Virus record (IMG/VR): IMGVR_UViG_3300029583_000202
Span: 5,114-25,744 of that record
Origin: a virus
Strand: one strand, 5' to 3'
Length of the DNA stretch: 20,631 bases
Shown: positions 1 through 20,631 of the stretch, in pieces
How the letters are laid out: each line of letters opens with the position of its first letter
Numbering within the stretch: position 1 is the stretch's first letter
The notes under the pieces: generated by a model
Told to the model about the DNA's origin: nothing
Seen by the model: the letters and a program-made list of their open reading frames with translations, nothing else
Databases searched by the model: none
Made by a program: the position numbers and the translations under genes

Positions 1-13
1 GATCACCGCCAAC

Positions 14-550
14 ATGGAACCACAGCCTCGGGAGGATATTGTGGAAGACAGCTCTCATTCCATGCGCTTGGCGTCCTGTGTGATGAGCTGGCGGAATGCA
101 CAGCCGACGCATGAACGGTATAACTTGTTAGAAAAGCGGCGGGAACAGCTTGCTACGCAATTTTCTGAAGTGGTTTGCAAAAAGGTAGACGGTTATTGGC
201 TTGCATCTACTTTTATGGACGGAACTTGCGGCGTTTACCGCTATTCTTATAACACAGAAGGGGTCGGTTATTCCGGTTACGAAAATTCAGCCCATATTTT
301 GATTGGGTGGTGGAGTCTTCTGGAAGATGCCCGCATTCAAAAGATTTACGCAGAAACGCTGAATCTTTTCCCGCTTGGAGAAAGCCGCGATAGCAATCCT
401 TATTTCGATTTTGCAACTGTACGGGATCAGAACCCGTATTTTGATGCTGATACAGGCTATGACCTTGGTATGTATGAATGTATGGTTCTTTGCGCGGCAA
501 AATTGAACGCCGGAATGAATACCCAGAACCTTACAGAAAATAATCAATAG
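14..550 (+). CDS. hypothetical protein, possibly 5'-truncated by the window edge
   Basis: Listed ORF. The same frame is open back to nt 2, so the true start may lie upstream. It is visibly AT-richer than the next genes. I recognise no motif. A 28-nt gap to the next gene suggests the same transcription unit. Confidence 0.45.
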   Translation: MEPQPREDIVEDSSHSMRLASCVMSWRNAQPTHERYNLLEKRREQLATQFSEVVCKKVDGYWLASTFMDGTCGVYRYSYNTEGVGYSGYENSAHILIGWWSLLEDARIQKIYAETLNLFPLGESRDSNPYFDFATVRDQNPYFDADTGYDLGMYECMVLCAAKLNAGMNTQNLTENNQ

Positions 551-578
551 CCGGGGAATGTAAAGAGAGGAGTTTTCC

Positions 579-1658: not shown

Positions 1659-1735
1659 TCTTCGCCGAGCAGCTTCTGTGCGGCAGACCCCTGTCAGCGC
1701 AATACATTACACAGAAAACAAAGGAGAACTCTCCC

Positions 1736-3187: not shown

Positions 3188-3202
3188 GGAGAAGATTCGG
3201 CA

Positions 3203-4711: not shown

Positions 4712-4728
4712 ATTCAGGAGTTTTTATT

Positions 4729-6669
4729 ATGTGTGGTATTTCCGGCTATCTTGATTTAAAAAACGGTGTTTCTATTCAAACACTCCGTCAGATGAACGAT
4801 GCGATTCGCCACAGAGGCCCCGACGATGAGGGTTATGCCCTTATCGGCACGGAGCAGACTCTTCTCTTCGGCGGGCAGGATACCGCTCCCATCCTAGGGT
4901 TACCTGTTCTGTCTGACACCACTGACAGCGGCGCTTTTCTCGGGTTGGGACACCGCCGCCTAAGCATTTTGGACCTCTCTCCGTCTGGACACCAACCGAT
5001 GCACCTGCCCGCGCAACAATTGACCTTGGTGTATAATGGTGAAATCTACAATTATGTGGAACTCCGTCAGGAATTAGAGCATCTTGGTTGTCATTTTAAT
5101 AGCTCCTGTGATACCGAAGTGCTGCTGCAGGCGTACTGCGTTTGGGGAGAAGACTGTCTTTCTCACTTCAACGGAATGTGGAGCTTCGCTCTGTGGGATG
5201 GTCGGGCAAACAAGCTATTCTGCGCTCGCGACCGCTTGGGCGCAAAGCCCTTTCACTACTGGCATCAGGGCGATAAGCTGATCTTCGGCTCCGAACTCAA
5301 GCAGCTCTGTCAGGATAATACGATCCCGCGCCGCTTTAACCGCTCCTATCTGTCGGCAAACCTAATGTACGGTCTCACAGATTACAACGATCAAACGCTG
5401 ATAGATGGAATGCAGGTTCTCAGACCCGGACACCAAATGACTGTGCAGTTGGATAGTAGCCGTTCCCACATCATGGATATTGCTATTCGTCCTTACTGGG
5501 AGCTCAGGGTCGGTGAATATGAGCCTCTGAGCCTTACACAATGGCAGGAGAAGGTCGGAGAGGAGTTTTCCCGCAGTGTGCGTTGGAGGCTTCGCAGCGA
5601 TGCTCCGCTGTCCGCACTATTATCCGGAGGCTTGGACTCTTCTTGTTTAGTAGCGGAGATTTGCTCCCAGTTAAATGATCCCTCCGCTCTTCAGACCTTT
5701 ACGACCAGCTATCCTGGCCGTACCGACTGCGATGAATGGGATTTTGCCGATATGGTGAATCATCATTGCGGCTGCATCGGGCATCAGATTTTTCCCGACC
5801 CCACCGACCATATTGAGCAGCGCTTCTCCGATATCGTTTGGTATGTAGAAGGCCTTGGAGGTTTGGCGCTCCTCGGCAGTAAGGCCGTCACCGATGAGAT
5901 TCGGCGCCGTGGCTTTAAGGTTATTCTAAACGGTCAATGCGGCGATGAGACAATGTTCGGTTATGAACGCTACTTTGCATATTACTTTTTCGATCTGCTC
6001 AAACGGGGAAAAGTTTTTCAGTTTCAGCGCGACTTCCGTTTGGCTTCTCTCCACACCAGTCTCGCTCTGCCGCAGCTGCTCGCTATGTTCTTCTACTTCA
6101 ACTTTCCCTTTGTGCGTGATCAGTGGCAACTTCGCCGTTCCGGCAGTTATGTACGGCAGGAGCTTCTTTCACAGCGAAAAAAGGAAGAGCTTCATGATTT
6201 ATTGTATCACGGTTCCCTCCAACATCTACAGAAAACGGAGTTAACACAAACGCAGCTCACCCATATCGTTCGATTTGACGACCGCATGAGTATGTCCTCA
6301 TCGGTTGAAACGCGCATTCCCTTTATGGACTACCGTTTTGTTGAGCTCTCCGTACGCATCCCTCCGCAGCTCAAGTTTGAAAATGGCTACACCAAGAGCA
6401 TTATGCGCCACCTTTATGACGCTCGTATGCCGAAAGAGGTTACTTGGCGCACCAATAAAATGGGCTTTGGGGCGCCTATCGATCGTTGGGCTGCCGCGTT
6501 TTCGGATGACTACCTCTATGATCTCCTCCATACCGCGAAAACCGCACCGTTCTTCCAGATCGACGCATTGAAAAAGGCCGTTCCTCACCGCGCCAACCAC
6601 ATCCGCGCTCTTTTTGACTTCGTTCAAGCCGAAGAGTTTTCCCGTCGCTTCAATGTTGGCATTTCTTAG
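4729..6669 (+). CDS. asnB: asparagine synthase (glutamine-hydrolysing) family amidotransferase, polysaccharide-cluster paralogue
   Basis: The true start is MCGISGY at ATG 4729 (Ntn-amidotransferase Cys2), with SD CAGGAG at 4715-4720. It has the HRGPDD motif and the PP-loop LLSGGLDSS. The 92 extra N-terminal codons of the listed ORF (4453-4728) are Arg/Ala/Pro-rich and overlap the flippase gene. Confidence 0.9.
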   Translation: MCGISGYLDLKNGVSIQTLRQMNDAIRHRGPDDEGYALIGTEQTLLFGGQDTAPILGLPVLSDTTDSGAFLGLGHRRLSILDLSPSGHQPMHLPAQQLTLVYNGEIYNYVELRQELEHLGCHFNSSCDTEVLLQAYCVWGEDCLSHFNGMWSFALWDGRANKLFCARDRLGAKPFHYWHQGDKLIFGSELKQLCQDNTIPRRFNRSYLSANLMYGLTDYNDQTLIDGMQVLRPGHQMTVQLDSSRSHIMDIAIRPYWELRVGEYEPLSLTQWQEKVGEEFSRSVRWRLRSDAPLSALLSGGLDSSCLVAEICSQLNDPSALQTFTTSYPGRTDCDEWDFADMVNHHCGCIGHQIFPDPTDHIEQRFSDIVWYVEGLGGLALLGSKAVTDEIRRRGFKVILNGQCGDETMFGYERYFAYYFFDLLKRGKVFQFQRDFRLASLHTSLALPQLLAMFFYFNFPFVRDQWQLRRSGSYVRQELLSQRKKEELHDLLYHGSLQHLQKTELTQTQLTHIVRFDDRMSMSSSVETRIPFMDYRFVELSVRIPPQLKFENGYTKSIMRHLYDARMPKEVTWRTNKMGFGAPIDRWAAAFSDDYLYDLLHTAKTAPFFQIDALKKAVPHRANHIRALFDFVQAEEFSRRFNVGIS

Positions 6670-6687
6670 CAACGATAAAGATCGTCA

Positions 6688-6727
6688 AAAACGACTGCCT
6701 ACCAATTTACAGCTAGGCAGTCGTTTT
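6688..6727. terminator. bidirectional rho-independent terminator
   Basis: Perfect 14-bp inverted repeat: AAAACGACTGCCTA (6688-6701) and TAGGCAGTCGTTTT (6714-6727), with a 12-nt loop. A-run and T-run on either side. It lies 19 nt after the asnB-like stop. Confidence 0.75.
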
Positions 6728-7000
6728 GCAGAATTTCGCCGAATTTACGGAGTTGTTTTCCGTGCATCGCTGCACGGGGAGGCAAACATCTACCTCCTCA
6801 TTTTGCGCACTGCGGCAGTCCAAATCTGCAATGACCTCCACAGCAAGGACATTGCTTAAGCCTGAATCTTTCCAAACGGAGACCATGCACAGGCACATTG
6901 CTCCGGCGATTAAAATAGCCAGAATTTGTTTTATGCGCTTTCCAGCTAAGGTTTTTTTGCGCAGCACGGTCTTAATTTTTTCGAGCAGCTTAGCTACCAT
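6713..7000 (-). CDS. doubtful small single-pass membrane protein
   Basis: Listed ORF, trimmed to ATG 7000 (MVAKLLEKIK...). It has a basic N-terminus and one hydrophobic helix (ILAILIAGAMCLCMVSVW). The SD is poor (GAAGAG about 12 nt upstream). The stop is embedded in the terminator hairpin. No recognisable family. Confidence 0.25.
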   Translation of the reverse strand: MVAKLLEKIKTVLRKKTLAGKRIKQILAILIAGAMCLCMVSVWKDSGLSNVLAVEVIADLDCRSAQNEEVDVCLPVQRCTENNSVNSAKFCKTTA

Positions 7001-7267
7001 GCAAGCAAGCAACTCTTCAATTATTGTTTTGGATAGAAAATTGAGAAACTACCTGCCCAAGGCCATCAGACCCGAGGCGATGATGTTCGTATTTACCATA
7101 CTACTTATTCATGTTTGTTACTCCGCATCAGCGGGGCTACATCATTTCTGTGCAGCTCTTATGGTCGCCCATAAGCTCAGACTGTGCCTTCATCCGCGTG
7201 GGATGCTCCGTGTCCAGTCGTTACACCTTCCCCTTAGGGGGCTTGGCTCGGCGTTCTCTGCACTTTT

Positions 7268-7296
7268 AATATAGCACATCATTGTCGCTGTGGCAA
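7268..7296 (-). promoter_or_regulatory. sigma-70-type promoter reading leftwards into the 7.0-7.26 kb non-coding stretch
   Basis: On the minus strand: TTGCCA (7296-7291), a 17-nt spacer, then TATATT (7273-7268). It starts 8 nt after the stop of the last phage ORF. Confidence 0.45.
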
Positions 7297-9120: not shown

Positions 9121-10383
9121 TCATCTGTTGGTTTGGTCGCTCTCTGCCGCCTTGCGGCGCAGCTCCTCCTGCACGTCCGTCACCCACGGCAGATTTTCCA
9201 AAATCGTCTGCGCGGACAGTACCGGGGAGAGCGAGAGCAGCGTTTCCGCAAGGGCCGAATTATCCTGCGGCAGGTTTTTATAAAACGCCGCCGTGCCGCC
9301 CGTGAGGTCGATGTTCCGCCCCATGAGTCGCTCGCCCGCCGTCAGCACGGCGAGCAGGCCGCGCAGGCCATCTGTAAAGGTGCGCTCCTTTGCAGCGCGC
9401 ACCTGCTCGATGCCCCATAGCTTATACTGCAGCGCCACGCCGGAGCTGTTGCCCGCAAAATGCTCGTCGCACAGATCCGGCGTCATGGACAGCTGCAAAA
9501 TGCTGCGGCGCAGGTTCGTTTCCAGTTGACCGAGCGCCTCATGGTTGAGGTTTTTGACCACGAACTCCGCGCGCCCGCCCTCGCTGAGCGACAGGATCCG
9601 TGTGCGGTTGGCGTTGTCGATGTCCTTCTGTGTCGTACCCTGCATTCCATAGAGCGCCAAAAAGGCATTGGCGACCGACTGCATGTCGTCCAGCGCGCCG
9701 GAGAGCAGCACATTGTACGCATCCACCAGTCCCGTCACCATCTCAAAGTCGCCCACACCCTGACAGTTGTTGTAGAAGGGCAGCAGGGGAATGGTGTGCA
9801 GCAGATTTTCCTCCGCCGTGCCGAGCGTCGCGCCGGTTCCGTCCCACACAAACGGGATGAGCCGTTCGGCCGTGTACAGCACGCCGCGCGTTTCGCCCTT
9901 ACCGCCCGCAAACAGCCTCACGGCAGCGAGCAGGGGGGCGCCCGCGTCACCGGAGCGAATGGCAAAGCAGTCGCAGGGGTCGCAGCGGCAGACCCGCACG
10001 CCGCTGCGCTCCGCCCACACGAGTGCAAAGCCTGCGCCGCAAATACTCAGGTCGCGCCCGAGGTCAAAGTAGAGATGCGGCAGAGCCAGCTCGCGGCTCA
10101 GCGCCGTGTAGCGCTCGCCCGTCGTAGCCTCGCCGTAGGCGAGGGCAGGGGGGATGCCGAGAAAGTATCCCGTGTGTACCTCCGTGATGTAGCGTGGGAA
10201 CGGCGCGCGCAGCAGATTGTTGGGACGGCCCCGCACGGCTTCGCCCTTGTTCACCGGCTGCTCGCCACGGTAGTAGTCGTAGAGCCGCTGCCGATCCGGG
10301 CGCACCGTCCGCAGAAACTCTCCCACCGCCGCGCCCAGCATTTCCGCGTCCGGGACGCCGGAACAGATGATGTCCTGTTTCAA
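9121..10383 (-). CDS. phage portal protein, SPP1 Gp6-like
   Basis: TTG start at 10383 with SD GGAGGA at 10396-10391. The N-terminal region ...RQRLYDYYRGEQPV...RPNNLLRAPFPRYITEVHTGYFLGIPP... is characteristic of SPP1-type portals. Confidence 0.85.
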   Translation of the reverse strand: MKQDIICSGVPDAEMLGAAVGEFLRTVRPDRQRLYDYYRGEQPVNKGEAVRGRPNNLLRAPFPRYITEVHTGYFLGIPPALAYGEATTGERYTALSRELALPHLYFDLGRDLSICGAGFALVWAERSGVRVCRCDPCDCFAIRSGDAGAPLLAAVRLFAGGKGETRGVLYTAERLIPFVWDGTGATLGTAEENLLHTIPLLPFYNNCQGVGDFEMVTGLVDAYNVLLSGALDDMQSVANAFLALYGMQGTTQKDIDNANRTRILSLSEGGRAEFVVKNLNHEALGQLETNLRRSILQLSMTPDLCDEHFAGNSSGVALQYKLWGIEQVRAAKERTFTDGLRGLLAVLTAGERLMGRNIDLTGGTAAFYKNLPQDNSALAETLLSLSPVLSAQTILENLPWVTDVQEELRRKAAESDQTNR

Positions 10384-10551: not shown

Positions 10552-12984
10552 TCAGGTCGTAAGCAGCGTCTCCGCAAAGCGCCGGTCATCGTCTATGCAG
10601 CCGTTCAGGACAACGATCTTGTCAAAGAACGCCTGTGCCGTCTCGTCCAGCCCCACCGGCACGAGCGCGGAGGCATTATGGGCCTGCAAGGCGTTATAGT
10701 AATCCGTCAGCTTTGGCAGCAGCGTCTCACGCTGTGTCAGCAGAGGACTCGATGCACCGTTGTCGAAAAACGCGGCTTGAAGCATTGCTGCGCAGGCATT
10801 CCATGTGTCCGCGTTCGACGCCGAATACATCGCGCCGAGAATGGCCTCATCGACCGCCTCGCCGTACTGCTCCGTCCGCAGATAATAGTCCACCAGATAG
10901 CGCGGAATGGTGTTGCTCTGCACCTTAGAGAGCTGCGCGGCATACTCGTCCGCCTGTTCACGGTAATCCTCCGGATATTCCATCTCCAATGAATTTACCA
11001 CATAGGAGAGCATCATGTCGTTCCGTTCATAAAGGTCGAGCTTTGCCGCCGCGCTGAGGTTATAGAGAAACTCATCCCCATCCGCGACCGGCGCGTCCGC
11101 CTTCGACGCCGCATAGAGGTTGCCGCACAGCGTCAGCACCACGACCGCGGTAAAGCCGATGCCAATATTCCGCGCCAGCAGGGAGGGGTCAAGCCTTTTC
11201 GCCTGCGTTTTCTTCTTTCTTCCGTTCTCCTCCGCCGCGGCGGCTTTTTCCGCAAACGGCTCAGCCCACGCGCCGACGATCAGCCCGTAGACAGCATAGG
11301 TCATGCAGAGGAACACGATCATCGACATGGATACGTCCCAAAGCATCTGCAAGCCGTTCATCACAAATTCCGCGCACAGTGCAGGGTAGAGCCAGTAAAA
11401 TTCGTCCTCCCGCGTCTGCTTCCGCCTTTTCCAGAGCGCAAGCAGCATTGCGGCCAGCGCACCAATATATAACGCAAGCCCGACCACGCCGTCCTCGAGC
11501 AGAATTTGCAGATAATGCTGATGCACATACCTCGTCTCATAAGGATAGTCCTGCACCCGCGTCACGCCCGTTTCAAACGCACCCACACCGCTGCCGACAA
11601 TGGGGCTGAGCTTCCAGAGCTTTACCGCGTCCCCCCAAAACATCTCACGCAGCATCGTGGAGTTGTTCATACCGAAGCTCTGCACACGGTAGGCTGCAAA
11701 GCCCGGCAGCAGCTTGTAGCGGAGCGGCAGGTCATCTGCGTCGTCAATGACCGCGCGGCTGACCGTCACGCCCGGTTCAGCGGAAAATACAAAAAAGGTC
11801 TTTGCGTCCTTGTCCGTCACGGTGAAGGAGACCGGCCCATCTGCCATCTCGTTGTAAAGCTCCGTGCTGCCGCTCGACATCATTTGAACAGCGTTCTGCG
11901 TGTATATCCTCACCGTCACCGCACCATCCGCCTCGACCTGAATCGTATGCTCGCCCGCATCCAGTTGGGCACTGCGGTAAAGCTCGGGGCCGAAGGTATA
12001 CGGTCCCGTCACATTCATTGCCGCAACGGCGTACACGCCCGCGCCCAGCACCACCGCGATCAGCACGCCGAAGGCGAGCTTCTCGTGCTGCTCCAGCACC
12101 GCGGAGAGCCTCGCGCTCACCGTCAGCTCCAGCAGCACGGACACCCCCGCATTTGCCAGCAGCAAGGCAAGCACCAGCGCGCTCCGCTCGCTGTTAAACA
12201 GCGCAAAGGCAATAAATCCGCACACCAGCGTCGGCACAGCCGCGCCCAGCATCCGCAGCAGGGCCGCGCTGCGTCCCTTTCCCGCAAAAATCAGATATAC
12301 TGCAACCGCCGCGATGAAGCAGGCGATCGCACCCATGCTGAACACCAGCAGGAATGCGAACGCGCTGAACGACAGCGTAACGGTAAAAAGAATGCGCTGC
12401 CACCTTTTCTCCGCTCCGCACACGAGCGCGGCTGAGAGCAGAACGCCGATGGCAAAAACCGACGCCTCAATGTTTGAGTTACCAAAGATACCGTACAGGC
12501 GTGCGCCATTAAATGCTATGTTATCCGTGTTGATCGCAGGCAGCCTTTCCAACAGCAGCTTTGTAATGCCCGTGCTCACCGCCTCCACGCTCAAAAGCGC
12601 ATAGAGCGCGGAAATCCCCGCGATCACGCCCATCACGCGCCGCGCAAACGCGCGGTCGAAGCGCCCGTGCATGGCAACAAGCAGGAAGAAAAACACCGCG
12701 ATGAGGATCTTCGACCCCTCGCGCAGATGAAACTTGCCGGACATCGCCCAAAAAATCGTCACCCACGAAAACGCCGCATAGCCGAGCAACAGCAGGGAGG
12801 GGAGGTTCCAAAGCCGCTTTTCGTCGCCGAAAAAGAGCAGCGCGATGACGCCGACGCCCGCGAGCAGCGTCAGCCATTTCGTTCCAATGCCGCCGAAATG
12901 CAGCACTCCCAGCACCGCGAGCGCGAGGCACAGCACCACCGTGATCCACGCAGAGTTCTGTTTCCCGTTTATCCTTGCACGCAT
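10552..12984 (-). CDS. large O-antigen ligase/polymerase-like membrane protein with an extracytoplasmic insert and a helical C-terminal domain
   Basis: Listed 810-aa ORF with many TM segments. Wzy_C-like motif GSGVGAFETG...YVHQHYLQILLEDGVVGLALY. A soluble insert spans roughly aa 325-450. After a last TM segment there is a helical, TPR-like tail of about 200 aa. Confidence 0.75.
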   Translation of the reverse strand: MRARINGKQNSAWITVVLCLALAVLGVLHFGGIGTKWLTLLAGVGVIALLFFGDEKRLWNLPSLLLLGYAAFSWVTIFWAMSGKFHLREGSKILIAVFFFLLVAMHGRFDRAFARRVMGVIAGISALYALLSVEAVSTGITKLLLERLPAINTDNIAFNGARLYGIFGNSNIEASVFAIGVLLSAALVCGAEKRWQRILFTVTLSFSAFAFLLVFSMGAIACFIAAVAVYLIFAGKGRSAALLRMLGAAVPTLVCGFIAFALFNSERSALVLALLLANAGVSVLLELTVSARLSAVLEQHEKLAFGVLIAVVLGAGVYAVAAMNVTGPYTFGPELYRSAQLDAGEHTIQVEADGAVTVRIYTQNAVQMMSSGSTELYNEMADGPVSFTVTDKDAKTFFVFSAEPGVTVSRAVIDDADDLPLRYKLLPGFAAYRVQSFGMNNSTMLREMFWGDAVKLWKLSPIVGSGVGAFETGVTRVQDYPYETRYVHQHYLQILLEDGVVGLALYIGALAAMLLALWKRRKQTREDEFYWLYPALCAEFVMNGLQMLWDVSMSMIVFLCMTYAVYGLIVGAWAEPFAEKAAAAEENGRKKKTQAKRLDPSLLARNIGIGFTAVVVLTLCGNLYAASKADAPVADGDEFLYNLSAAAKLDLYERNDMMLSYVVNSLEMEYPEDYREQADEYAAQLSKVQSNTIPRYLVDYYLRTEQYGEAVDEAILGAMYSASNADTWNACAAMLQAAFFDNGASSPLLTQRETLLPKLTDYYNALQAHNASALVPVGLDETAQAFFDKIVVLNGCIDDDRRFAETLLTT

Positions 12985-13150: not shown

Positions 13151-14095
13151 ATGAGCCGAGAAAACGAAAAGGTATTGGCGGAGCTTCGGAAATTTCTTGA
13201 ACTCCACAACGAGGAGCTGAACGATGAGAAGGACTTTGACCGGCTGGCGGAGCAATTTCTGTCGCAGCACAACGGCTCTCCGGACGGCGGCAGTATGGGA
13301 GAGATCGAAATGGCCGATGACTATCTGGAGCTCGCCGAGCAGGCCGCATCAAAGAAAAAGCGCCTGAACTACTTGAAAAAGGCGCTGGAGCTTGAGCCGG
13401 ATCATGTGGACGCGCAGCTTCAGCTGATCCTGACCGAGGCGGAGGACGCTCCGGAGGCACGCCTTACCGCCCTGGAGGATCTCATCAAAAAGGCGGCTAA
13501 GCCGTTGGAGGAGGAAGGCTGCTTTGAAAGAGGGACAGGGGCGTTCTGGGGGATCATGGAGACGCGGCCTTATATGCGCGTGCGCCGCGAGTACCTCGGT
13601 TCGTTGATCGAATGCGGCATGATGCAGCTTGCGATCGAGGAATGCCGGCAGCTTTTGGAATTGTGCGAGGGGGATAACCTCGGCATTCGCTATCTCCTGA
13701 TGCATCTCTATGCCTATACGGAGGACGAGCTGCACGCATTGGCGCTGCATCGGAAATACGACGCCTATGAGGAAACGCAAATGCTACTTCCGCTGTCGAT
13801 CCTGTATTATAAGCTTCATCAGCTTGACAAGGCAGAGGACCACCTGAAACGGCTGGCTTCGGTCAATAAGGACACGAAGAAATTCCTGCGGATCATGATA
13901 AACGGAGACCCCAATGCCCTGATCGACCATCTGGACCCGTACGGGTATCGCCCCTTCACGATCGAGGAGCTGATCGAAGACCTTGTGGGGAATGCGTTTC
14001 TCTTCTCCTCTGTACCGCACTTCTTTGCATGGGCATCCAACTGTCTGAGCAAGCGCACAGGCGGTAAGGCAAAGTGGCCGGAGAAAGGCAGATAA
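13151..14095 (+). CDS. ST7-like / TPR-like helical protein of unknown function
   Basis: I chose ATG 13151 (SD-like GGGAGA upstream). ATG 13130 is an alternative. The longer listed ORF start at 12845 overlaps the divergent gene and both promoters. The all-helical sequence with ETRPYMRVRREYLGSLIECGMMQLAIEECRQLLEL... resembles the ST7 (suppression of tumorigenicity 7)-type bacterial homologues. Confidence 0.6.
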   Translation: MSRENEKVLAELRKFLELHNEELNDEKDFDRLAEQFLSQHNGSPDGGSMGEIEMADDYLELAEQAASKKKRLNYLKKALELEPDHVDAQLQLILTEAEDAPEARLTALEDLIKKAAKPLEEEGCFERGTGAFWGIMETRPYMRVRREYLGSLIECGMMQLAIEECRQLLELCEGDNLGIRYLLMHLYAYTEDELHALALHRKYDAYEETQMLLPLSILYYKLHQLDKAEDHLKRLASVNKDTKKFLRIMINGDPNALIDHLDPYGYRPFTIEELIEDLVGNAFLFSSVPHFFAWASNCLSKRTGGKAKWPEKGR

Positions 14096-14158
14096 GACGG
14101 AACGGCCTGCTGCAGGTCCATAGGAAAGGCAATATCCGGTGTGTTCTCCGTAAAATAA

Positions 14159-14189
14159 GCGTCCGCCCCCATAACAGGGAGGCGGACGC
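14159..14189 (-). terminator. rho-independent terminator of the GHKL-nuclease/HTH operon (may also stop the convergent + gene)
   Basis: GCGTCCGCC (14159-14167) pairs with GGCGGACGC (14181-14189), extendable by CCC/GGG. On the minus strand it is followed by UUAUUUUAC. Confidence 0.6.
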
Positions 14190-14268
14190 TGTATATTAGC
14201 CTATGGGCATATTCTCATCCTTCGCCAACAGAAGTCATACCGTTTTCGTTCACAATTTCCCATCTGTT

Positions 14269-14502
14269 TTACAAGCAATTTCGTTCAACCACAAGGTCGT
14301 TGACGGTCGTGCCGAGCAGTACGCTCAGCGCGTAGAAGTTATCGATGTTCGGCAGCGTCCGTCCCGCCTGCCAGTGATACACGGACTGAGGACACGCGAG
14401 GTTCAGGTACCGCTGCATGTCCAAAACCGTGTACCCTCTCTCGATCCGGCGGCGGAGGATGTTCTCCCCCGTCGCCTTCACATCGATCACCGGATAGAGC
14501 AT
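14269..14502 (-). CDS. XRE-family helix-turn-helix protein (77 aa)
   Basis: I chose ATG 14502, which overlaps the upstream TGA by one base (TGATG). The longer listed start lies inside the upstream gene. The sequence ...GENILRRRIERGYTVLDMQRYLNLACPQSVYHWQAGRTLPNIDNFYALSVLLGTTVNDLV fits the HTH_3/XRE pattern. Confidence 0.8.
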   Translation of the reverse strand: MLYPVIDVKATGENILRRRIERGYTVLDMQRYLNLACPQSVYHWQAGRTLPNIDNFYALSVLLGTTVNDLVVERNCL

Positions 14503-16046
14503 CACGCGCTGATGCCCTCCTCCGCCCACGTCCGCAGCACGAAGTGATACGGCGCTCCCGTGGGGTCGCACTGGCTGTTGAGCTGCTCCGCCAGACTGCA
14601 CACCTCCTTCGGATGGCGCGCCCCGATGAGCACGCTCTCCTTCGCCGGAACGCCGTCCATCGCGCAGCCGTCCGCGTAGAGCCGAAGCTGGTAGAGGTCC
14701 TCCGCCTTCGTGCCCTTTGCCTTCGCCTCATAGATGGTCATTCCATCGGTCTTGCTCACCAGCAGGTCGATCTTCCCCTGCAATCCGATCGTGCGGTAGG
14801 TGCCCTCCTCGCGGCCGATGCGGAGCGTATCGCTCTCCGCCGCCTTCTTCTCCGCGAGCTTGCCGACGAGACGGCTCTCCAGCGACTCGCGCGAGGTCTC
14901 CGGCTGCCTGACATTGGCGCGGATCCAACGGAAGAGCGCCTGCGTGCGCGCGTCTCCCTCGACAAAGGCGTTCTTCGTCGTCTCCGTTGCGGGGAACGCG
15001 ACGCCGTCCTCGCCGCGCAGGTCGATCTGCGCGAGGAAGCGGTTGCAGCTCGGGTGCAGCGCCCGTCCGAACACCTTGCTGTACAGGCCGCGCTCAATGC
15101 AGCGGCCGTTGATGCGGATCTCGAGGCCAGAGGAGGCCATATTGCCCTTATAGTAGGTGGCATTCTCCTTATCTGCCTCGATGGTGCCGTAGCAGCAGCG
15201 GACGGTGACCTCACCGCCGCCGAAGTCCGCCGGCGTCTCCGGCAGCTCCACCGGGTCCTCCTCCCAGAGAGGCTCGAGCGCCTCGAGCTGGTGGCAGCTC
15301 TCGTGCGCGTTCTGCTCACGGCAGATGATGCCGATGGTGATGCGGCCCTCTGCAAGGATGGATGCATAGGTGTAGGCGAGCTCCTCCTTGAGGTAGCCGC
15401 ACAGCTGACGGAAGTCTGCCTTGGCGCGCTTCGTTGCGGGCTTGAGACCCTCGAGCTTCTCCTTGCCGCAGCGGACGCGGACAGTGGTGCCGGTCTCAAA
15501 CAGAATGGCGCCGCTGCCCTGATGGACCTTTGCGCGCATCTTCCGGTCGATGGCGGCATAGGGCGCGGATACGCAGCGGTAGCGGTCCGCCGCCGCGTCC
15601 TCCTTGGTGCGGCTCTCAAGGAGCCACAGCTCGGCCTCCTCGCTGAGATAGGAAAGGGCGTTCTTCAGCCCGCAGCCATGCTCATTCAGCGGCGACTGCG
15701 CTCCGCCGTGGCCGGAGATGGTCAGGGCCGCACCGAGGTCCGAGATGCCGGTGCCGCTGTCGCAGACGGAGATGTCTACATAGTCGCCGCCATCCGTGAG
15801 GCAGAGAATGACCTTGCCGCTGCCGCCGCTTGCCCTGATGGAGGAAATGGCGTTGTCCACCAGCTCCTCGATGGCCTGAGCAGGGGAGGTATAGTGGCCG
15901 CCAATGGCCTGAAACAGGGCGAAGCCGCTGGGGGTGTTGTCGAGCACCGTGTCGCCGATGCAGACGCCGGAGGGCTCATAGATGTTCTCGGGGATCATGG
16001 GGTTTGTGCTGTTGAAGAGGCTCTTGATGTTGTCAGTCGTATTCAT
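14502..16046 (-). CDS. GHKL (HATPase_c_3 / paraMORC-like) ATPase fused to a C-terminal PD-(D/E)xK nuclease-like domain
   Basis: SD AGGAGA lies 8 nt before ATG 16046. Bergerat-fold motifs: N-box EELVDNA (aa 60-66, nt 15869-15849), G1 DSGTG (aa 96-100) and G2 GHGG...NEHGCGLKNA (aa 112-130). C-terminal IDLLV...IYEAKAK, with D427 at nt 14768-14766 and E440-x-K442 at 14729-14721, followed by QLRLY, fits a restriction-endonuclease / Mrr-cat-type core. Confidence 0.8.
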   Translation of the reverse strand: MNTTDNIKSLFNSTNPMIPENIYEPSGVCIGDTVLDNTPSGFALFQAIGGHYTSPAQAIEELVDNAISSIRASGGSGKVILCLTDGGDYVDISVCDSGTGISDLGAALTISGHGGAQSPLNEHGCGLKNALSYLSEEAELWLLESRTKEDAAADRYRCVSAPYAAIDRKMRAKVHQGSGAILFETGTTVRVRCGKEKLEGLKPATKRAKADFRQLCGYLKEELAYTYASILAEGRITIGIICREQNAHESCHQLEALEPLWEEDPVELPETPADFGGGEVTVRCCYGTIEADKENATYYKGNMASSGLEIRINGRCIERGLYSKVFGRALHPSCNRFLAQIDLRGEDGVAFPATETTKNAFVEGDARTQALFRWIRANVRQPETSRESLESRLVGKLAEKKAAESDTLRIGREEGTYRTIGLQGKIDLLVSKTDGMTIYEAKAKGTKAEDLYQLRLYADGCAMDGVPAKESVLIGARHPKEVCSLAEQLNSQCDPTGAPYHFVLRTWAEEGISA

Positions 16047-16080
16047 GGATCGTATCTCCTATAAAATAAAATTTAATTTC

Positions 16081-16100
16081 GGCGCGTTCCGCTCCGCGCC
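16081..16100 (-). terminator. terminator/attenuator-like hairpin just upstream of the GHKL gene SD
   Basis: Minus strand: GGCGCG-GAGCGGAA-CGCGCC followed by GAAAUUAAAUUUUAUUUUAU. A second possible stem (CTGCGGC 16107-16113 with GCCGCAG 16134-16140) lies just upstream. Confidence 0.35.
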
Positions 16101-16158
16101 TGTGAGCTGCGGCAGGGGGGAAGCGGGGCGGTGGCCGCAGGGTCACCCGCTGCGCTGC

Positions 16159-16212
16159 TCAGGGTATGTGCCGCGGATAAAGCGCGCAGCTGCGGGCCTT
16201 GAACTCTTTCAT
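16159..16212 (-). CDS. 17-codon micro-ORF in the leader (possible leader peptide)
   Basis: Strong SD AAAGGAGG (minus strand, 16228-16221), a 9-nt spacer, then ATG 16212. Translation MKEFKARSCALYPRHIP, stop TGA at 16161-16159. Too short for the ORF track. Confidence 0.25.
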   Translation of the reverse strand: MKEFKARSCALYPRHIP

Positions 16213-16246
16213 GGAACGGTACCTCCTTTCCCCCAGCGGTAAGCAA

Positions 16247-16279
16247 AACAGCGTGCAGGCATTTCGCCTACACGCTGTT
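16247..16279 (-). terminator. strong intrinsic terminator inside the leader of the GHKL operon
   Basis: 14-bp stem: plus-strand AACAGCGTGCAGGC (16247-16260) with GCCTACACGCTGTT (16266-16279), containing one G-U pair, and a 5-nt loop. On the minus strand the stem runs into UUUUGCUU. Confidence 0.6.
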
Positions 16280-16488
16280 CCATACCGCTATGAGGGTGCG
16301 GAGATCTGACGCCCGAGCGCACACGGAGGGAGTTTTATAGCAGCCGTATCTTGCCAAACGGGGCAAAACAGGGTATACTGCTTCCAGACGGTGCGGCTTC
16401 AGCCGTTGTGTAGGTGGTCCTATCACCTGCGCAGGTTGCGGAGTGTTGGTAGCGCTCCGCAGCTGCCGTTGTTTTACTTTGTAATGAT

Positions 16489-16517
16489 AGTATAGCATAT
16501 GTGTATGCACATATCAA
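16489..16517 (-). promoter_or_regulatory. leftward sigma-70 promoter with operator 1 in its spacer
   Basis: Minus strand: TTGATA (16517-16512), a 17-nt spacer, then TATACT (16494-16489). Confidence 0.55.
16497..16514. promoter_or_regulatory. operator 1: 18-bp palindrome ATATGTG-TATG-CACATAT
   Basis: Perfect 7-bp inverted arms. Identical to operator 2 apart from one base in the central 4 nt. Confidence 0.6.
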
Positions 16518-16556
16518 TAGGCAATGTATCCAAATATTCTTGTAATAATCTGTGAA

Positions 16557-16574
16557 ATATGTGTATTCACATAT
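16557..16574. promoter_or_regulatory. operator 2: 18-bp palindrome ATATGTG-TATT-CACATAT
   Basis: Second copy, centred 60 bp from operator 1. It overlaps the -35 of the rightward promoter. Confidence 0.6.
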
Positions 16575-16594
16575 GGCTTCTTATTTTGTAAGAT
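16566..16594 (+). promoter_or_regulatory. rightward promoter for the RHH gene
   Basis: TTCACA (16566-16571), a 17-nt spacer, then TAAGAT (16589-16594). ATG 16625 follows a GAAGG SD-like element. Confidence 0.4.
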
Positions 16595-16624
16595 GAAACA
16601 AAGAGGATAGAAGGCGGTATTCCA

Positions 16625-16813
16625 ATGAAGCAGACCGAGGCGCAATTGCGCGCCAGTAAAAAATATCACGAAAAACTGGAGAACATTCAGCTGCGCGTCC
16701 CCAAAGGTGAAAAGGGGAATATCGCAGAGCACGCCAAGGCGCGGGGAGAGTCCACCAACGCGTTCATTTACCGCGCCGTGAAGGAAACCATCGCGCGCGA
16801 CGAGCAGAAATAA
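16625..16813 (+). CDS. ribbon-helix-helix (Arc/CopG-like) DNA-binding protein
   Basis: Listed 62-aa ORF. Beta-strand IQLRVPK, then two helices EKGNIAEHAKARGES and TNAFIYRAVKETIARDE. This is the typical RHH layout found on Firmicutes mobile elements. Confidence 0.75.
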   Translation: MKQTEAQLRASKKYHEKLENIQLRVPKGEKGNIAEHAKARGESTNAFIYRAVKETIARDEQK

Positions 16814-17077
16814 AGCAAACGGACGGGGAGGGCAGAGCAATGACAAGGGAAGCTCTAAGTATCATTGCAATGAAACAACCCTCCTCAAGAAAGCCCTATA
16901 AGGCAACACCAGCGGCAGACTTCCGACTATGAGCCGCGGCCTGCGCCCGCCAATCCCGACAGGCCCCGTTCGATTTGGAAGCAGATGAAAACCTCCGCAA
17001 TACAGGCCGAGGCTGACCGGGGGAAATCCGCCCCAAAGGAAAATGTCCCCTGACTGGGGCGATAGATATGTCCACCT

Positions 17078-17249: not shown

Positions 17250-17387
17250 ATGTATATTGAAAAAGAGTGGTTCGAGAAGATATTTGAACCAAGCACATAC
17301 TATATCCTTGGGCCTAAGGGAAGTGGGAAAACTTTATATGCTGCGTATATGTGTGCTCATGTGCGCAAAAATTCTCGAGGATATTGA
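17250..17387 (+). pseudogene. N-terminal fragment of a P-loop NTPase gene, truncated at about nt 17375
   Basis: AT-rich. MYIEKEWFEKIFEPSTYYILGPKGSGKTLYAAYM... has a Walker A motif (GPKGSGKT). The reading frame dies 10-15 codons later, where it runs into inverted IS110 sequence. The true start could be upstream, near SD AGGAAGAGAG at 17149-17158. Confidence 0.55.
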
Positions 17388-17745
17388 ACACCGGTATCCA
17401 GAACTTACCGGAGGATTCCATACAAACATCGTTACAGTCGTATTTGGCAAGCCAGTCAGCCAGTTCCTGCAAGCCTTTTGTAAAGGAGGAAAAGCGAGCC
17501 TGCTTATACTCTGTACGTCCATTTGTGTCAGTAATTCCGATACAGGCGTAAATCCAGGTCTTGTGAACATCCAGTCCACAGCAGTTTTTGCGGAAAATCT
17601 TAAATGCCGCTATACAGCCCCACCACTCACCTCCACGGGTTCTGTAGTGTACCGAACTCTCCGTGGATATTGTAACAAATTTTGAAAATGTGCGAAAGGC
17701 CGCAGGTTTCATAACCCCGTCGGTGCCTTTCGCAGAAAGGCGGAT
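17374..17745 (-). mobile_element. orphan 5' end of an IS110-family element: about 70 N-terminal codons of the DEDD transposase plus the upstream non-coding end
   Basis: Minus-strand translation ...KNCCGLDVHKTWIYACIGITDTNGRTEYKQARFSSFTKGLQELADWLAKYDCNDVCMESSGKFWIPVFNILE matches the IS110 N-terminal DEDD domain (G-[IL]-D-V-[HS]-K ... ME[AS][TS]G.[YF]W). Similarity stops at about 17375. No canonical in-frame start codon. An extended -10 (TGTTACAAT, plus-strand coordinates 17670-17678) and hairpins lie upstream. Confidence 0.7.
17691..17734. repeat. 10-bp inverted repeat with a 24-nt loop in the IS110-fragment non-coding end
   Basis: TGCGAAAGGC (17691-17700) pairs with GCCTTTCGCA (17725-17734). 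It can be extended with a bulge by CCG/CGG. Confidence 0.6.
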
Positions 17746-17752
17746 TATACAC

Positions 17753-20631
17753 ATGAAGCACAAGCGAAGCGGCAGAGTGACGGCTCTGCTCCTTTCCGCT
17801 GTCCTGACGCTCTGCCTGCTCCCCCTGCCGGTCAGGGCCGCGGGCGCGGAGACGAGCGTTCAGCTCGGCGATTACATTCAACTGGGCCGCTACGACGGCG
17901 AGCCGATTTTGTGGCGCTGCGTCAGCGTGGACGAAAACGGCCCCCTGATGCTCTCGGACAGAGTACTGTGCGACTCTATGCCCTATGACGCGCAGACCGG
18001 CGAAAATTCCGACAGCGGCTCCCACCGGCGCAGCGGCTACCGGAGCAAATACGGCTCCAACCACTGGCGGGACAGCGATATGCGCTCGTGGCTCAATTCC
18101 GACGCCGACGCCGGACAGGTGAAATGGCTCTGCGGCAACCCGCCCAAGGACGGCTATATCCTAGGCGGCGGCGCGTATGACGGCAAGGCGGGCTTCCTCA
18201 ACGGCTTTACGAGAGACGAGGCCGCCGCCATCAAAACGGTGACGCAGCGTTCCATCGTTTCCCACCCGGAGTACACCGCGGGCTACATCGACGCCCCGGG
18301 CACCGACCTCCCCTACAACACCGATATCGGCTCGGTGGCGGACGGCTACGAGGGCGCGCATTACGAGAACATCACCGACAAGGTGTTCCTGCTGGATGTC
18401 AAGCAGCTCCACACCGTCTATGAAAGCCTCGGCGGCTACTACATCGGGCAGAACCGGAACGGTGTCAGCTGGAACTACTGGCTGCGGACGCCGGTGACGA
18501 ACTGCAACCACGATATGCGCTATGTAAGCTCGCAGGGGAGCATCGGGCGCGACGCGCCCTACAAGGGCTACTACGGCGTCCGTCCGGCGTTTTATCTGGA
18601 CGCGGCGTATTATGCCGTGACCTCCGGCAGCGGCACGGCGGCTGACCCCTATGTTGGCGCCGCGCCGAGCAAGCCGGCGGACAGCACACCCCTTTCTCCC
18701 GCCGAGCGGGACACCGGCGACGGGAATTGGGATGTGGACACCGAGACGTATCTTCAGGTGAAGATGAGCGAACGCTACACGACCGACCGTGAGTACGCCA
18801 ACCCCACCATTCCGGTGTATGTGATCCAGAAGCCCCGCAGCGACACGGAGAACATGGTGATCCTGTTCTGCGCCGAGGGCTACACCAAAAGCCAGCAGGC
18901 GGATTTCATCAAGGATGTTCAGCAGCTGTGGCAGGCAACGCTGAACACGGAGCCGTACCGCAGCATGGCGGACCGCTTCAATGTCTATGCGCTCTGCACG
19001 GCGTCGAAAGACGGCTTTAACGGCAGCAGCACGTTTTTCCAGGCGAATAAAAACGGCATCTCCGTCAACTACGGAGTCTGGAGAAACCACATTTTAGAGC
19101 GCATCATAGGCACGGCCTTCCTTGAAAAGATCCATGACGCGCACATTCCCAACACGACCATGCCGGAGGCCGATGAATACAGACAGTATGATTACGTTTA
19201 TGAGCACATCAACCAGTTTGTTGTGCTGGCGAACAGCGGGGAATATTTCGGCGGCTCCCACGATGAGATAAAAAGCGGCATCCACTATATTCTGGCAGCC
19301 GCGAAACACAACGACTCCCCGTTTATCCTGCGCCATGAGCTGGGGCACGGACTGTTTCATTTAGGCGACGAGTATGCGACCAGCTCGACCCCCGTGGGGG
19401 AGGCGTCCTACAGCGCCTCGCTGAATATCTCTCACACGGCGGACCCCACGCAGGTAAAGTGGAAGAATATGCTGGGCTTCCGTAATACCTATTCCTGCCC
19501 GCACAGGGACGATTCGTATGTGTACAATTCCAGCTTCGAGTGCCTCATGCGGGAGAATAGAAGAAACGAATTCTGCGATGTGTGTACCCTTCAGGGCACC
19601 AAGCGCATGAGCCAGCTGATCTCCGACCCGCCCGCCCTCTATGCGGCGGTACCGGAGGTGAAGCTCTACACCGGCGAGTATAAAAACCCCTCCGAGAACG
19701 CCGACGCTTACCGGCAGGCAAATTACTCCGGCTATTGGAGGTATCAGCAGGATCGGGAGAGCCGCCTTCTGAGCGGCAGCTACAAAAGCCGCCTCTCTCC
19801 GGACATGAAGGGGCGGGAGATCGAGTTGCGGACCATCGTTCAAAACCTCTCCGACACCAAAGAGCAGACCGTAACGCTGCGCCTGTGGGTGCAGCACAGC
19901 GGCAGCAGGGAGTTCTTGGCGGAAAAGGACTTTCCCATTCCCGTCTGGAGCGAAAAGTCCAAGTTCTGGCCCAAGGGCGCGCTGGAATACACGGGCAGCA
20001 ACTTTGATTCCGGCCTCGTCAACTGCTCTCTCGTTTATAAGCTCTCGGAGGACACGGAGCTGTACGCCGGCGACACCATCGGCTTTGAGGTGGTGGACGG
20101 GAAGGGGAATACCCTTGCCACCGACGCCACCGAAAATCAGTCCTACACCCCCGTCACCGTTCGCTATGCGCTGGAGGACGGCACGGCGATGCCCAACACC
20201 GCGCCCTCCATTCTGCCGATTCCGACAGGCGCAAGCGTGAACTGGCAGCCGCCTCAGACCCTGAACGGCCACGCCTTTGTCAATATGAAGGACAACGGCT
20301 CCACGGTCACCTTCGTTTATCAGGAGACCTCGGAGCAGCCGGAGGTAAAGACCTACACGGTGCGCTATGTCTGGGGCGAGGCCCCCTCCGACAGAAAGCT
20401 GCCCACCGACAGCAGGGCTTATCGCAGCGTGGAGCAGGCGAGGGACGCGGTGGACACCACCTTCACCGCCGCTTCGACCTCCAACGCGCACAGCGGCGGA
20501 CATAACGGCACATGGACGTTCTCCGGCTGGGACAACGGCACCTTAGAGGGCACGACCGTGGTGTTCCGCGGAGCATGGCGCTTTACCGCGGACAGCGGCT
20601 CCGCGGGCGGTGGCTCCGCGGGCGGCGGCTC
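17753..20631 (+). CDS. secreted multidomain surface protein: DUF6273-like domain, M64 (IgA-peptidase-like) zinc metallopeptidase domain and SHIRT-like repeat(s); 3' end beyond the window
   Basis: Absent from the ORF track because it has no stop in the window. I translated it by hand from ATG 17753 to nt 20631 and found 959 codons with no stop. Signal peptide MKHKRSGRVTALLLSAVLTLCLLPLPVRA/AGA. DUF6273-like landmarks: ILWRCV, MRSWLN, DKVFLLD, YWLRTP, GVRPAFYL. M64-like landmarks: VILFCAEGYT, FNVYAL, and HELGH (19334-19348) followed by GLFHLGDEY. C-terminal YTVRYVW...GTWTFSGWD...FRGAWRF. The long minus-strand ORFs here are GC-driven shadows. Confidence 0.85.
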   Translation, partial: MKHKRSGRVTALLLSAVLTLCLLPLPVRAAGAETSVQLGDYIQLGRYDGEPILWRCVSVDENGPLMLSDRVLCDSMPYDAQTGENSDSGSHRRSGYRSKYGSNHWRDSDMRSWLNSDADAGQVKWLCGNPPKDGYILGGGAYDGKAGFLNGFTRDEAAAIKTVTQRSIVSHPEYTAGYIDAPGTDLPYNTDIGSVADGYEGAHYENITDKVFLLDVKQLHTVYESLGGYYIGQNRNGVSWNYWLRTPVTNCNHDMRYVSSQGSIGRDAPYKGYYGVRPAFYLDAAYYAVTSGSGTAADPYVGAAPSKPADSTPLSPAERDTGDGNWDVDTETYLQVKMSERYTTDREYANPTIPVYVIQKPRSDTENMVILFCAEGYTKSQQADFIKDVQQLWQATLNTEPYRSMADRFNVYALCTASKDGFNGSSTFFQANKNGISVNYGVWRNHILERIIGTAFLEKIHDAHIPNTTMPEADEYRQYDYVYEHINQFVVLANSGEYFGGSHDEIKSGIHYILAAAKHNDSPFILRHELGHGLFHLGDEYATSSTPVGEASYSASLNISHTADPTQVKWKNMLGFRNTYSCPHRDDSYVYNSSFECLMRENRRNEFCDVCTLQGTKRMSQLISDPPALYAAVPEVKLYTGEYKNPSENADAYRQANYSGYWRYQQDRESRLLSGSYKSRLSPDMKGREIELRTIVQNLSDTKEQTVTLRLWVQHSGSREFLAEKDFPIPVWSEKSKFWPKGALEYTGSNFDSGLVNCSLVYKLSEDTELYAGDTIGFEVVDGKGNTLATDATENQSYTPVTVRYALEDGTAMPNTAPSILPIPTGASVNWQPPQTLNGHAFVNMKDNGSTVTFVYQETSEQPEVKTYTVRYVWGEAPSDRKLPTDSRAYRSVEQARDAVDTTFTAASTSNAHSGGHNGTWTFSGWDNGTLEGTTVVFRGAWRFTADSGSAGGGSAGGG
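20597..20631 (+). repeat. 15-nt tandem repeat encoding a GSAGG linker, continuing past the window edge
   Basis: GGCTCCGCGGGCGGT (20597-20611), GGCTCCGCGGGCGGC (20612-20626), then GGCTC... . It lies inside the surface-protein ORF. Confidence 0.6.

Follow-up and report, generated by a model that had tools for sequence, protein, structure and literature searches.

What kind of system is encoded where a single gene joins an ATPase to a nuclease and shares its stop codon with the start of a small regulator-like gene? The question is raised by a 20,631-nucleotide stretch of the IMG/VR virus record IMGVR_UViG_3300029583_000202 (positions 5,114 to 25,744; this whole stretch is called the window, and coordinates are counted from its first nucleotide). 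At 14502..16046 its minus strand carries a gene for a protein of 514 amino acids (aa), composed of a GHKL ATPase domain, a transducer-like middle domain and a NucS/RecB-type PD-(D/E)xK nuclease domain, and the next gene (14269..14502, minus strand) encodes a 77-aa XRE-type helix-turn-helix (HTH) protein. A preliminary description, made from the sequence alone, proposed that the two genes form a stand-alone defence module whose layout matches no named system, with the HTH protein as autoregulator or antitoxin-like partner. On the best reading of the present analysis, the 514-aa protein acts on its own as an ATP-gated DNA endonuclease and is of the paraMORC3 or Shedu type I-D kind, while the HTH protein is a lineage-specific regulator at the tail of a mobile-element operon and not part of the nuclease system.

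The fusion of a GHKL ATPase to a PD-(D/E)xK nuclease is upheld by Pfam, by an alignment of 33 full-length family members with identity down to 31%, and by AlphaFold2 and Foldseek, and both active sites are conserved. Invariant in the alignment are D64, D96, G98, G100, K128, G186, T187, R311/R315, K358, D427, E440, K442, Q453 and Y457, and E61 and E413 are conserved in at least 90% of members. The GHKL motifs are motif I (E61-x2-D64-N65), motif II (D96-x-G98-x-G100), motif III (N121-E-H-G-x-G-L-K128) and motif IV (G186-T187, tested as the GT-x-V type); the transducer-like middle region is marked by S306-G-x-E-I-R-x-N-G-R315 and P352/T354/K358, and the nuclease by E413, D427, E440-x-K442 and Q453-x3-Y457. 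Because they are invariant or nearly so across the 33 members, these are, to judge from the sequences, conserved catalytic motifs rather than chance occurrences. N65, earlier proposed as an ATPase residue to mutate, is not invariant and is replaced by D in some members; E61 is preferable to N65 for an ATPase-dead mutant.

Pfam places PDDEXK_1 at aa 321-464 of the window protein (27.3 bits, cut-off 22) and HATPase_c at aa 54-142 (26.3 bits, cut-off 26.4). When the 33 members were scanned singly, HATPase_c was found in 30, the MORC-type HATPase_c_3 in 26, PDDEXK_1 in 10 and NucS_C in two. A full-length AlphaFold2 model built on the family alignment reached a mean predicted local distance difference test score (pLDDT) of 87.6 and a predicted template-modelling score (pTM) of 0.72, and the C-terminal 143 residues modelled alone reached a pLDDT of 92.3. 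In Foldseek comparisons with the PDB, residues ~20-400 align over 390-450 columns with two-domain modules made of GHKL and transducer domains, the best match being the SMCHD1 ATPase module (6mw7, E 6e-14), followed by Hsp90 (N and M domains), GyrB 43K, MORC3 and Topo VI-B. Motifs I-IV, the HATPase matches and Foldseek together place the protein in the GHKL (Bergerat-fold) ATPase superfamily. A search of the PDB with the full protein sequence gave no match, and a viral structure library returned generic GHKL proteins and nothing else.

Residues 372-514 adopt a predicted PD-(D/E)xK fold that most resembles NucS/EndoMS (2vld and 5gke; E values around 1e-4, among them 8e-5; template-modelling (TM) score 0.62) and, after it, R.BspD6I, the R2 endonuclease, Can2/Card1 and Cap4. 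A sequence profile of the domain matched NucS alone in the PDB (E 0.014), aligned over D...ExK...QxxxY. The PD-(D/E)xK assignment of the preliminary description thus stands and its Mrr-like label does not, as profile and structural model agree on a NucS/RecB-like fold. Very probably, the protein is an ATP-dependent clamp fused to a NucS/RecB-type nuclease.

This architecture has been described before. In 2008, Iyer, Abhiman and Aravind defined paraMORC3 as a GHKL domain, an S5 domain and a C-terminal restriction-endonuclease-fold nuclease with E-D-ExK residues and similarity to the RecB family; its members, many of them stand-alone, occur sporadically among bacteria and archaea and were described as prevalent in Proteobacteria and Bacteroidota (PMC2292703). 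The window protein shares the GHKL and S5/transducer domains, a RecB-type nuclease with E413-D427-E440-x-K442, the sporadic distribution and the many stand-alone occurrences, and by the 2008 description it has the paraMORC3 architecture. It also belongs to the broader MORC/paraMORC class, which combines a GHKL domain with a transducer that bears a conserved basic residue, as K358 and R311/R315 are invariant. The MORC S5-domain motif is GhXhhpXXRhl (PMC2292703), to which G307-L-E-I-R-I-N-G-R-C-I corresponds approximately: the initial G, h, X, h and the final R, h, l agree, while its positions 5 and 6 are polar/hydrophobic instead of hydrophobic/polar. The MORC, SMCHD1, Hsp90 and GyrB modules share the fold of residues ~20-400, the ATP-binding motifs I-IV and the lysine-bearing transducer, but carry no PD-(D/E)xK nuclease.

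Later authors equate paraMORC3 with DUF4263 proteins, and Shedu homologues in which a middle domain accompanies a GHKL fold have been listed as type 1D (Gu et al., bioRxiv 10.1101/2023.08.10.552793). One such protein has been validated by experiment: VcSduA, a Shedu type I-D protein from Vibrio cholerae VSP-II(WASA), combines a DUF4263 PD-(D/E)xK nuclease with a GHKL ATPase and a middle domain that resembles a clamp. It defends both Escherichia coli and V. cholerae against phages, and this protection, which is lost in the E27A as well as in the K557A mutant, is direct rather than abortive and does not kill the host (Adams et al., 2025; PMC12137116). As a single-gene design, the fusion is therefore known and validated, and the earlier statement that the layout was unrecognised no longer holds. 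Like VcSduA, the window protein is one polypeptide with an N-terminal GHKL domain, a middle domain and a C-terminal PD-(D/E)xK nuclease and no methylase partner, and its family is mobile-borne and patchily distributed, as VcSduA lies on a genomic island and is patchy. Unlike VcSduA, the family has no DUF4263 nuclease, is about 500 aa long instead of roughly 600 aa (a length estimated from the position of K557), is found mostly in Bacillota, would in the window be controlled by a ribbon-helix-helix (RHH) gene and a structured leader, and is known from sequences and models.

The signature domain of Shedu is absent by several measures. Neither the 33 members nor 10 distant relatives match DUF4263 (PF14082) at E<=0.05, the PADLOC SduA (Shedu) model matched neither the protein nor the family nor the distant relatives, and the nuclease-domain profile found no Shedu chain in the PDB at E<=10. 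Structurally, E. coli SduA (8ps4) is the 36th match of the nuclease domain (E 0.066, TM score 0.39). A bridge to Shedu through the farthest database matches was sought and failed, as P0109 and P0110 are ordinary family members. PADLOC and NCBIfam models, run on the protein, the family and the distant relatives, named no system and gave weak single-domain matches to Cas4, MzaB and PDC; the earlier statement that no named defence system is matched is in this sense correct, as none of the PADLOC system models fits the protein. Its GHKL-nuclease architecture is absent from two recent preprints on defence discovery.

Other familiar classes fit less well. NucS/EndoMS (2vld, 5gke) shares the D...ExK...QxxxY constellation and comes closest to the C-terminal domain in both structure and sequence, but it has its own N-terminal DNA-binding and dimerisation domain, has no ATPase and is a vertically inherited repair enzyme; the window protein, whose N-terminal part is a GHKL ATPase and not the NucS domain, is not a member. 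Cas4 models match weakly (E 3e-4) and their core and QxxxY are present in the window protein, but the 33-member alignment holds no conserved cysteine set like the four-cysteine Fe-S set of Cas4, and the protein is not a Cas4. Nor does it fit a type I-III restriction-modification system, which would have a linked methyltransferase: the large open reading frames (ORFs) of the window that were scanned include neither a DNA methylase nor a helicase, in agreement with the stand-alone nature claimed earlier, and in the distant set methylases flank the gene at just 3-4 of 38 loci. By the Shedu signature-domain test, the window protein thus belongs to a separate unnamed family of paraMORC3/VcSduA-like design.

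The gene behind the nuclease gene was the basis for proposing a two-gene system. The junction, read directly as ...GCG TGA TG C..., confirms the overlap: the nuclease stop codon TGA (14504-14502) and the HTH start codon ATG (14502-14500) share 1 nt in TGATG, and a GGAGG-rich stretch lies upstream. The window HTH protein itself scores weakly against HTH_3 (18.3 bits, cut-off 23), but its homologue in locus L214 (loci are numbered with the prefix L) scores 45.6 bits, so the 77-aa protein is a genuine XRE-type HTH, as had been proposed. A strong intrinsic terminator with a 13-bp stem of 10 G-C pairs followed by a T-tract (14158..14190, minus strand) closes the operon.

The linkage of the two genes, however, is specific to one subclade. 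Among loci collected by their GHKL gene, the HTH homologue lies directly 3' of that gene in the window, L001, L008-L011 and L034 and nowhere else, and within this subclade the pair is retained at 40% to 95% identity. In metagenome loci chosen by the leader RNA described below, and hence independently of the GHKL gene, the HTH gene stands behind five of 36 full-length GHKL genes. The five proteins are 59-95% identical to the window protein, while the 31 without it comprise a subclade of 43-49% identity and one copy that is 96% identical; all distant loci lack the HTH gene. In the isolate genome L007, the HTH gene is internally deleted beside an intact GHKL gene of 95% identity, which argues against an essential antitoxin role. 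The HTH gene also closes operons that have no GHKL gene: L023 reads leader, PemK, HTH, and L187 and L214 read leader, PemK, RecD-like helicase, HTH, with the helicase where the GHKL gene would be. Because of the subclade-only linkage, the deletion in L007 and the operons without a GHKL gene, the HTH gene is regarded as the tail gene of the element operon rather than as antitoxin or nuclease subunit, and the pair does not show the conserved linkage expected of a type II toxin-antitoxin-like pair or of a two-gene system with an XRE-HTH protein. The preliminary description had itself asked whether homologues keep the pairing; they do so within the window subclade and not beyond it.

What is conserved around the nuclease gene lies upstream. 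By clustering of flanking ORFs and DNA comparison, a common cassette was found upstream of the GHKL gene in at least 33 Oscillospiraceae loci, even where the proteins are 38-48% identical. It contains a divergent gene (16625..16813, plus strand) for a 62-aa RHH protein of the Arc/CopG/RepB-RCR_reg-like kind, which is present in 27 loci collected by the GHKL gene and upstream of the leader in 75 of 106 collected by the leader. Two copies of the 18-bp palindrome ATATGTG(A/C)ATACACATAT (16557-16575 and 16497-16515) bracket the -35 region of a sigma-70-type promoter (16489..16517, minus strand), which consists of TTGATA, 17 nt and TATACT with an upstream TG and is conserved across loci. In other loci both palindrome copies are replaced together by a different palindrome, which suggests a locus-specific, matched repressor-operator pair, and the RHH protein is likely the repressor of the operator pair.

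The promoter is followed by a conserved, structured leader RNA of ~240 nt (16241..16482, minus strand). It contains a multi-helix junction (about 16468-16389) with an invariant CACCTACACAACGG and conserved AGTATACCC and GCAAG segments, and an intrinsic terminator at its 3' end (about 16278-16241). RNAalifold recovered both the junction and the terminator, with compensatory changes in 22 of 36 predicted pairs. Paired cells amounted to 95.3%, against 29-46% when the pairing partners were slid, double-sided changes occurred in 22 pairs as opposed to 5-11 in the slid controls, and none of 500 shuffles reached the observed score. Rfam gave no match to the leader at the gathering threshold or at E<=5. 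In sequence, CACCTACACAACGG resembles the 3' arm of the terminator and could pair with the terminator 5' arm CCGTGTAGG, which suggests an antiterminator/terminator switch. The leader is thus probably a transcription attenuator and a candidate new riboswitch-like or antitermination element. With the RHH gene, the operator pair, the promoter and the covarying leader with its terminator identified, the elaborate transcriptional control suspected earlier has been given its parts. Beyond the gene pair at 14269-16046, the structured leader RNA that would gate the gene is the more novel item.

Between the leader terminator and the nuclease start lies a spacer (16047..16240, minus strand) in which 16103-16219 is the deletion scar of a PemK-like gene pair. 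In L001, L008 and L009, this pair stands in tandem at the same place between the leader and the GHKL gene, and the scar retains its ribosome-binding site and a 17-codon ORF (16212-16159); the site and the first codons align with the first gene of the pair. The final 56 nt of the spacer are conserved and include the ribosome-binding site AGGAG of the nuclease gene.

The leader drives more than the nuclease gene. Its core has at least 120 exact matches in metagenome contigs, mostly from the human gut, and one match in the viral collection. Of 121 leader loci, 89 have at least 1 kb of downstream sequence, and a GHKL gene follows within 4.5 kb in 51, which makes it the commonest gene behind the leader in this leader-anchored sample. 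Large serine recombinases stand behind the leader at 19 loci, 13 of which continue with the GHKL gene, and L015, L016, L019, L020, L025 and L067 share the order leader, small ORF, large serine recombinase, GHKL gene. Tyrosine integrases follow at 12 loci, a 1069-aa, apparently surface-located protein at six, and PemK toxins and a RecD-like helicase also occur. One or two PemK/MazF-like toxins are co-operonic with the GHKL gene in L001, L008, L009, L011 and L030-L032. Window and L007 have one stretch in common, 14426-16814, at 92% identity; this 2.4-kb unit comprises the RHH gene, the leader and the GHKL gene, and its conservation inside unrelated flanks indicates that the unit behaves as a cassette.

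The family extends far beyond these gut bacteria. A database search returned 111 unnamed relatives, mostly of 490-520 aa and from gut metagenomes, and when 1.84 billion representatives were searched exhaustively with a profile, the clusters recovered numbered 275 at E<=1e-30, 582 at E<=1e-10 and 1125 at E<=1e-3. Its hosts include Oscillospiraceae, Lachnospiraceae and Coriobacteriia (Collinsella), Saccharibacteria, Flavobacterium and further Bacteroidota, Psychrobacter, Leptospira, Acidobacteriota and Chloroflexota, and among archaea haloarchaea and Thaumarchaeota. The family also occurs on 17 viral contigs, some of which are metagenome-assembled genomes of giant viruses, and on two small L. 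plantarum plasmids, where it is annotated as 'ATP-binding protein' and no more. The family is thus scattered in patches over bacteria, archaea, plasmids and viral contigs. In one isolate genome, the paralogues have diverged to 47% identity; the idea of a multi-copy repeat element was rejected, as copies in the same genome are 46-50% identical, fragments of one copy aside.

No partner gene recurs among the 142 neighbour proteins of 38 distant loci. These neighbours include 3-4 DNA methylases, EcoRV, ResIII and HNH proteins, a DUF2397/2398 cluster, serine and tyrosine recombinases, IS1595 transposases and ordinary metabolic genes; two neighbour proteins of this set, at loci not specified, carry IS1595 transposase domains by Pfam. 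One of the L. plantarum plasmids has a Sau3AI-family endonuclease beside the GHKL gene, and on the other a YafQ/Phd toxin-antitoxin pair and a RecD-like helicase adjoin it. Defence-type neighbours of the kind that the preliminary description had asked about among homologues thus exist (methylases, EcoRV, Sau3AI), but their enrichment, by counts, is modest. In many Oscillospiraceae loci a serine or tyrosine recombinase lies within 3 kb of the GHKL gene. Distribution and surroundings together fit a laterally mobile stand-alone module that is at times found in a defence-type context.

Several associations are confined to particular loci. In L102 (plasmid NZ_CP137848, 1884-6494; L. plantarum) a RecD-like helicase directly precedes the GHKL gene and, with the exchange of the two genes in L187 and L214, a functional link between them may exist. 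In two Bacteroidota loci (L005, 5098-5988; L006, 3575-4465), an IS1595-family transposase gene ends 12 nt ahead of the GHKL gene, which may there be the passenger of an IS1595-family insertion sequence (IS). At L049 and L069, an ORF of ~270-310 aa abuts the GHKL gene upstream. The large serine recombinase ORF of L073 (10098-12254) continues into a SpoVT C-terminal domain, which suggests that this element is inserted in the sporulation gene spoVT. In the sister subclade of 43-49% identity, a 67-aa acidic protein without a Pfam match is encoded 19 nt upstream of the GHKL gene (L002, 5779-5982; L012, 5755-5958; and 22 further loci); the two are linked in 23 of 24 occurrences, and the small protein may be an inhibitor or partner in that subclade.

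The genomes nearest to the window are those of Oscillibacter valericigenes and Oscillibacter sp. MSJ-31, and its remaining features are of mixed kind. A polysaccharide-biosynthesis locus with an oxidoreductase, Wzy, a MurJ-type flippase and an asparagine synthase occupies 1-7274. A lone SPP1-type phage portal gene (9124-10383, minus strand) lies between a Wzy-like membrane protein (10555-12984) and genes of no assigned function; Oscillibacter sp. MSJ-31 shows synteny here at 90% identity, and in the vicinity no further gene was recognised as a phage gene. A TPR protein is encoded at 13157-14095. Past the RHH gene, a 149-aa ORF (17314-17763, minus strand) shows weak similarity (E 0.04) to the N-terminal part of the IS110-family transposase IS621 and, by its sequence, is probably an IS fragment. 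The location in mobile DNA claimed earlier is borne out, but in altered form: the supposed prophage remnant is the single portal gene, the IS scar is probable, and the tRNA half placed beside it is not supported, as ARAGORN finds no tRNA anywhere in the window, including the region beside the 149-aa ORF.

As for what the protein does, an NTPase-gated nuclease, the design suggested at the outset, is still the most plausible one. By analogy with GHKL enzymes and VcSduA, ATP binding would bring about dimerisation through the ATPase domains, the middle domains would form a clamp that captures DNA, and the ATP cycle would permit the C-terminal nuclease to cleave phage or plasmid DNA as it enters, to the presumed benefit of both the host and the element that carries the gene. 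Expression would be gated twice, by the divergent RHH repressor acting on the two palindromic operators around the sigma-70 promoter, and by the ~240-nt leader with its terminator, where pairing of CACCTACACAACGG with the terminator 5' arm would act as antiterminator. The probable role, though with considerable reserve, is taken to be that of a nuclease directed against phages or plasmids, which a mobile element carries as cargo under tight regulation. Supporting it are the two intact active sites in one conserved architecture of ~500 aa and the lack of an obligatory partner gene among the loci compared. Several points weigh against it. The defence role is drawn from architecture and context, and the mechanism of VcSduA may not transfer because the family lacks the domain that defines Shedu. 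Enrichment of known defence genes in the vicinity is slight, with 3-4 methylases in a set of 142 neighbour proteins, and many of the neighbours have housekeeping functions. The Oscillospiraceae operon and leader are held in common with integrases and PemK toxins, which fits element maintenance or processing equally well. Finally, tight two-level repression could mean a toxic product, and the linked 67-aa upstream protein of the sister subclade hints that some members have a partner.

That last pair of points leads to a different function for the same enzyme, namely an addiction module in which a nuclease toxin, silenced by the RHH protein and the attenuator, stabilises an integrative element. 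The unusually tight control, the PemK/MazF-like toxins that share the operon in L001, L008, L009, L011 and L030-L032, the scar of a PemK-like pair in the window and the type II toxin-antitoxin pair beside the GHKL gene on a plasmid all speak for such a module, which is nevertheless judged unlikely. Its neutralisers might be small partners, the HTH protein in the window subclade and the acidic protein in the sister subclade, and the 23 of 24 linkage of the 67-aa protein is in favour. Against the module, no antidote is conserved across the family, about 50 distant loci share no small adjacent partner, and the GHKL gene is intact beside the deleted HTH gene in L007 and present without any HTH gene in the 96%-identical copy. 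The analogous VcSduA, moreover, protects a host that survives. Less probable still is a role in DNA processing for the element itself, in which the nuclease, co-expressed with a recombinase, would aid excision, replication, transfer or establishment, for example by end processing or by removal of competing DNA on entry. The six loci with the order leader, small ORF, serine recombinase, GHKL gene, the 13 of 19 leader-driven serine recombinases followed by the GHKL gene in the metagenome sample, the rank of the GHKL gene behind the leader and the 92%-identical cassette within otherwise unrelated flanks would all suit this role. Distant members, however, reside on plasmids and chromosomes without these recombinases or the leader, serine and tyrosine recombinases require no accessory nuclease, and recombination between repeated leader copies explains the shared cassette well enough.

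The two-gene proposal itself, with the coupled XRE-HTH protein as obligate autoregulator or antitoxin of the nuclease, is now very improbable. The TGATG overlap is real and the pair is kept in one subclade (L001, L008-L011, L034) across 40% to 95% identity, yet 31 of the 36 GHKL loci that were sampled independently, and every distant locus, lack the HTH gene, and the gene is deleted beside an intact GHKL gene and closes operons with other cargo. A housekeeping enzyme, in which a MutL-like ATPase and a NucS-like mismatch endonuclease would carry out non-canonical mismatch repair, has very little to be said for it beyond the proximity of the nuclease domain to NucS/EndoMS and the presence of MutL in the GHKL-transducer class: the family is patchily distributed, a genome may hold several diverged copies, the genes lie on integrative elements, on plasmids and beside IS1595, the N-terminal DNA-binding domain of NucS is absent, and the gene is repressed and attenuated instead of constitutive. 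A bolder view of the cassette concerns the leader, which might be an RNA that senses an infection- or transfer-linked signal and switches on the nuclease together with the integrases and toxins of the element. This is rather unlikely, as is its corollary that the nuclease would be the main cargo of an undescribed cassette and belong to an immune or exit programme rather than to constitutive defence.

Should the family, as the favoured reading of a defence nuclease has it, prove to protect its hosts, the GHKL-nuclease design would gain a second, unrelated nuclease-domain lineage that is missed by current defence finders, and would reach the abundant Bacillota of the human gut as well as archaea, plasmids and some viral contigs. 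The family is also a natural comparison for how an ATP clamp of the MORC/Hsp90 type licenses a nuclease. The leader, in turn, has good support as a candidate new structured RNA regulator of integrases, toxins and a nuclease.

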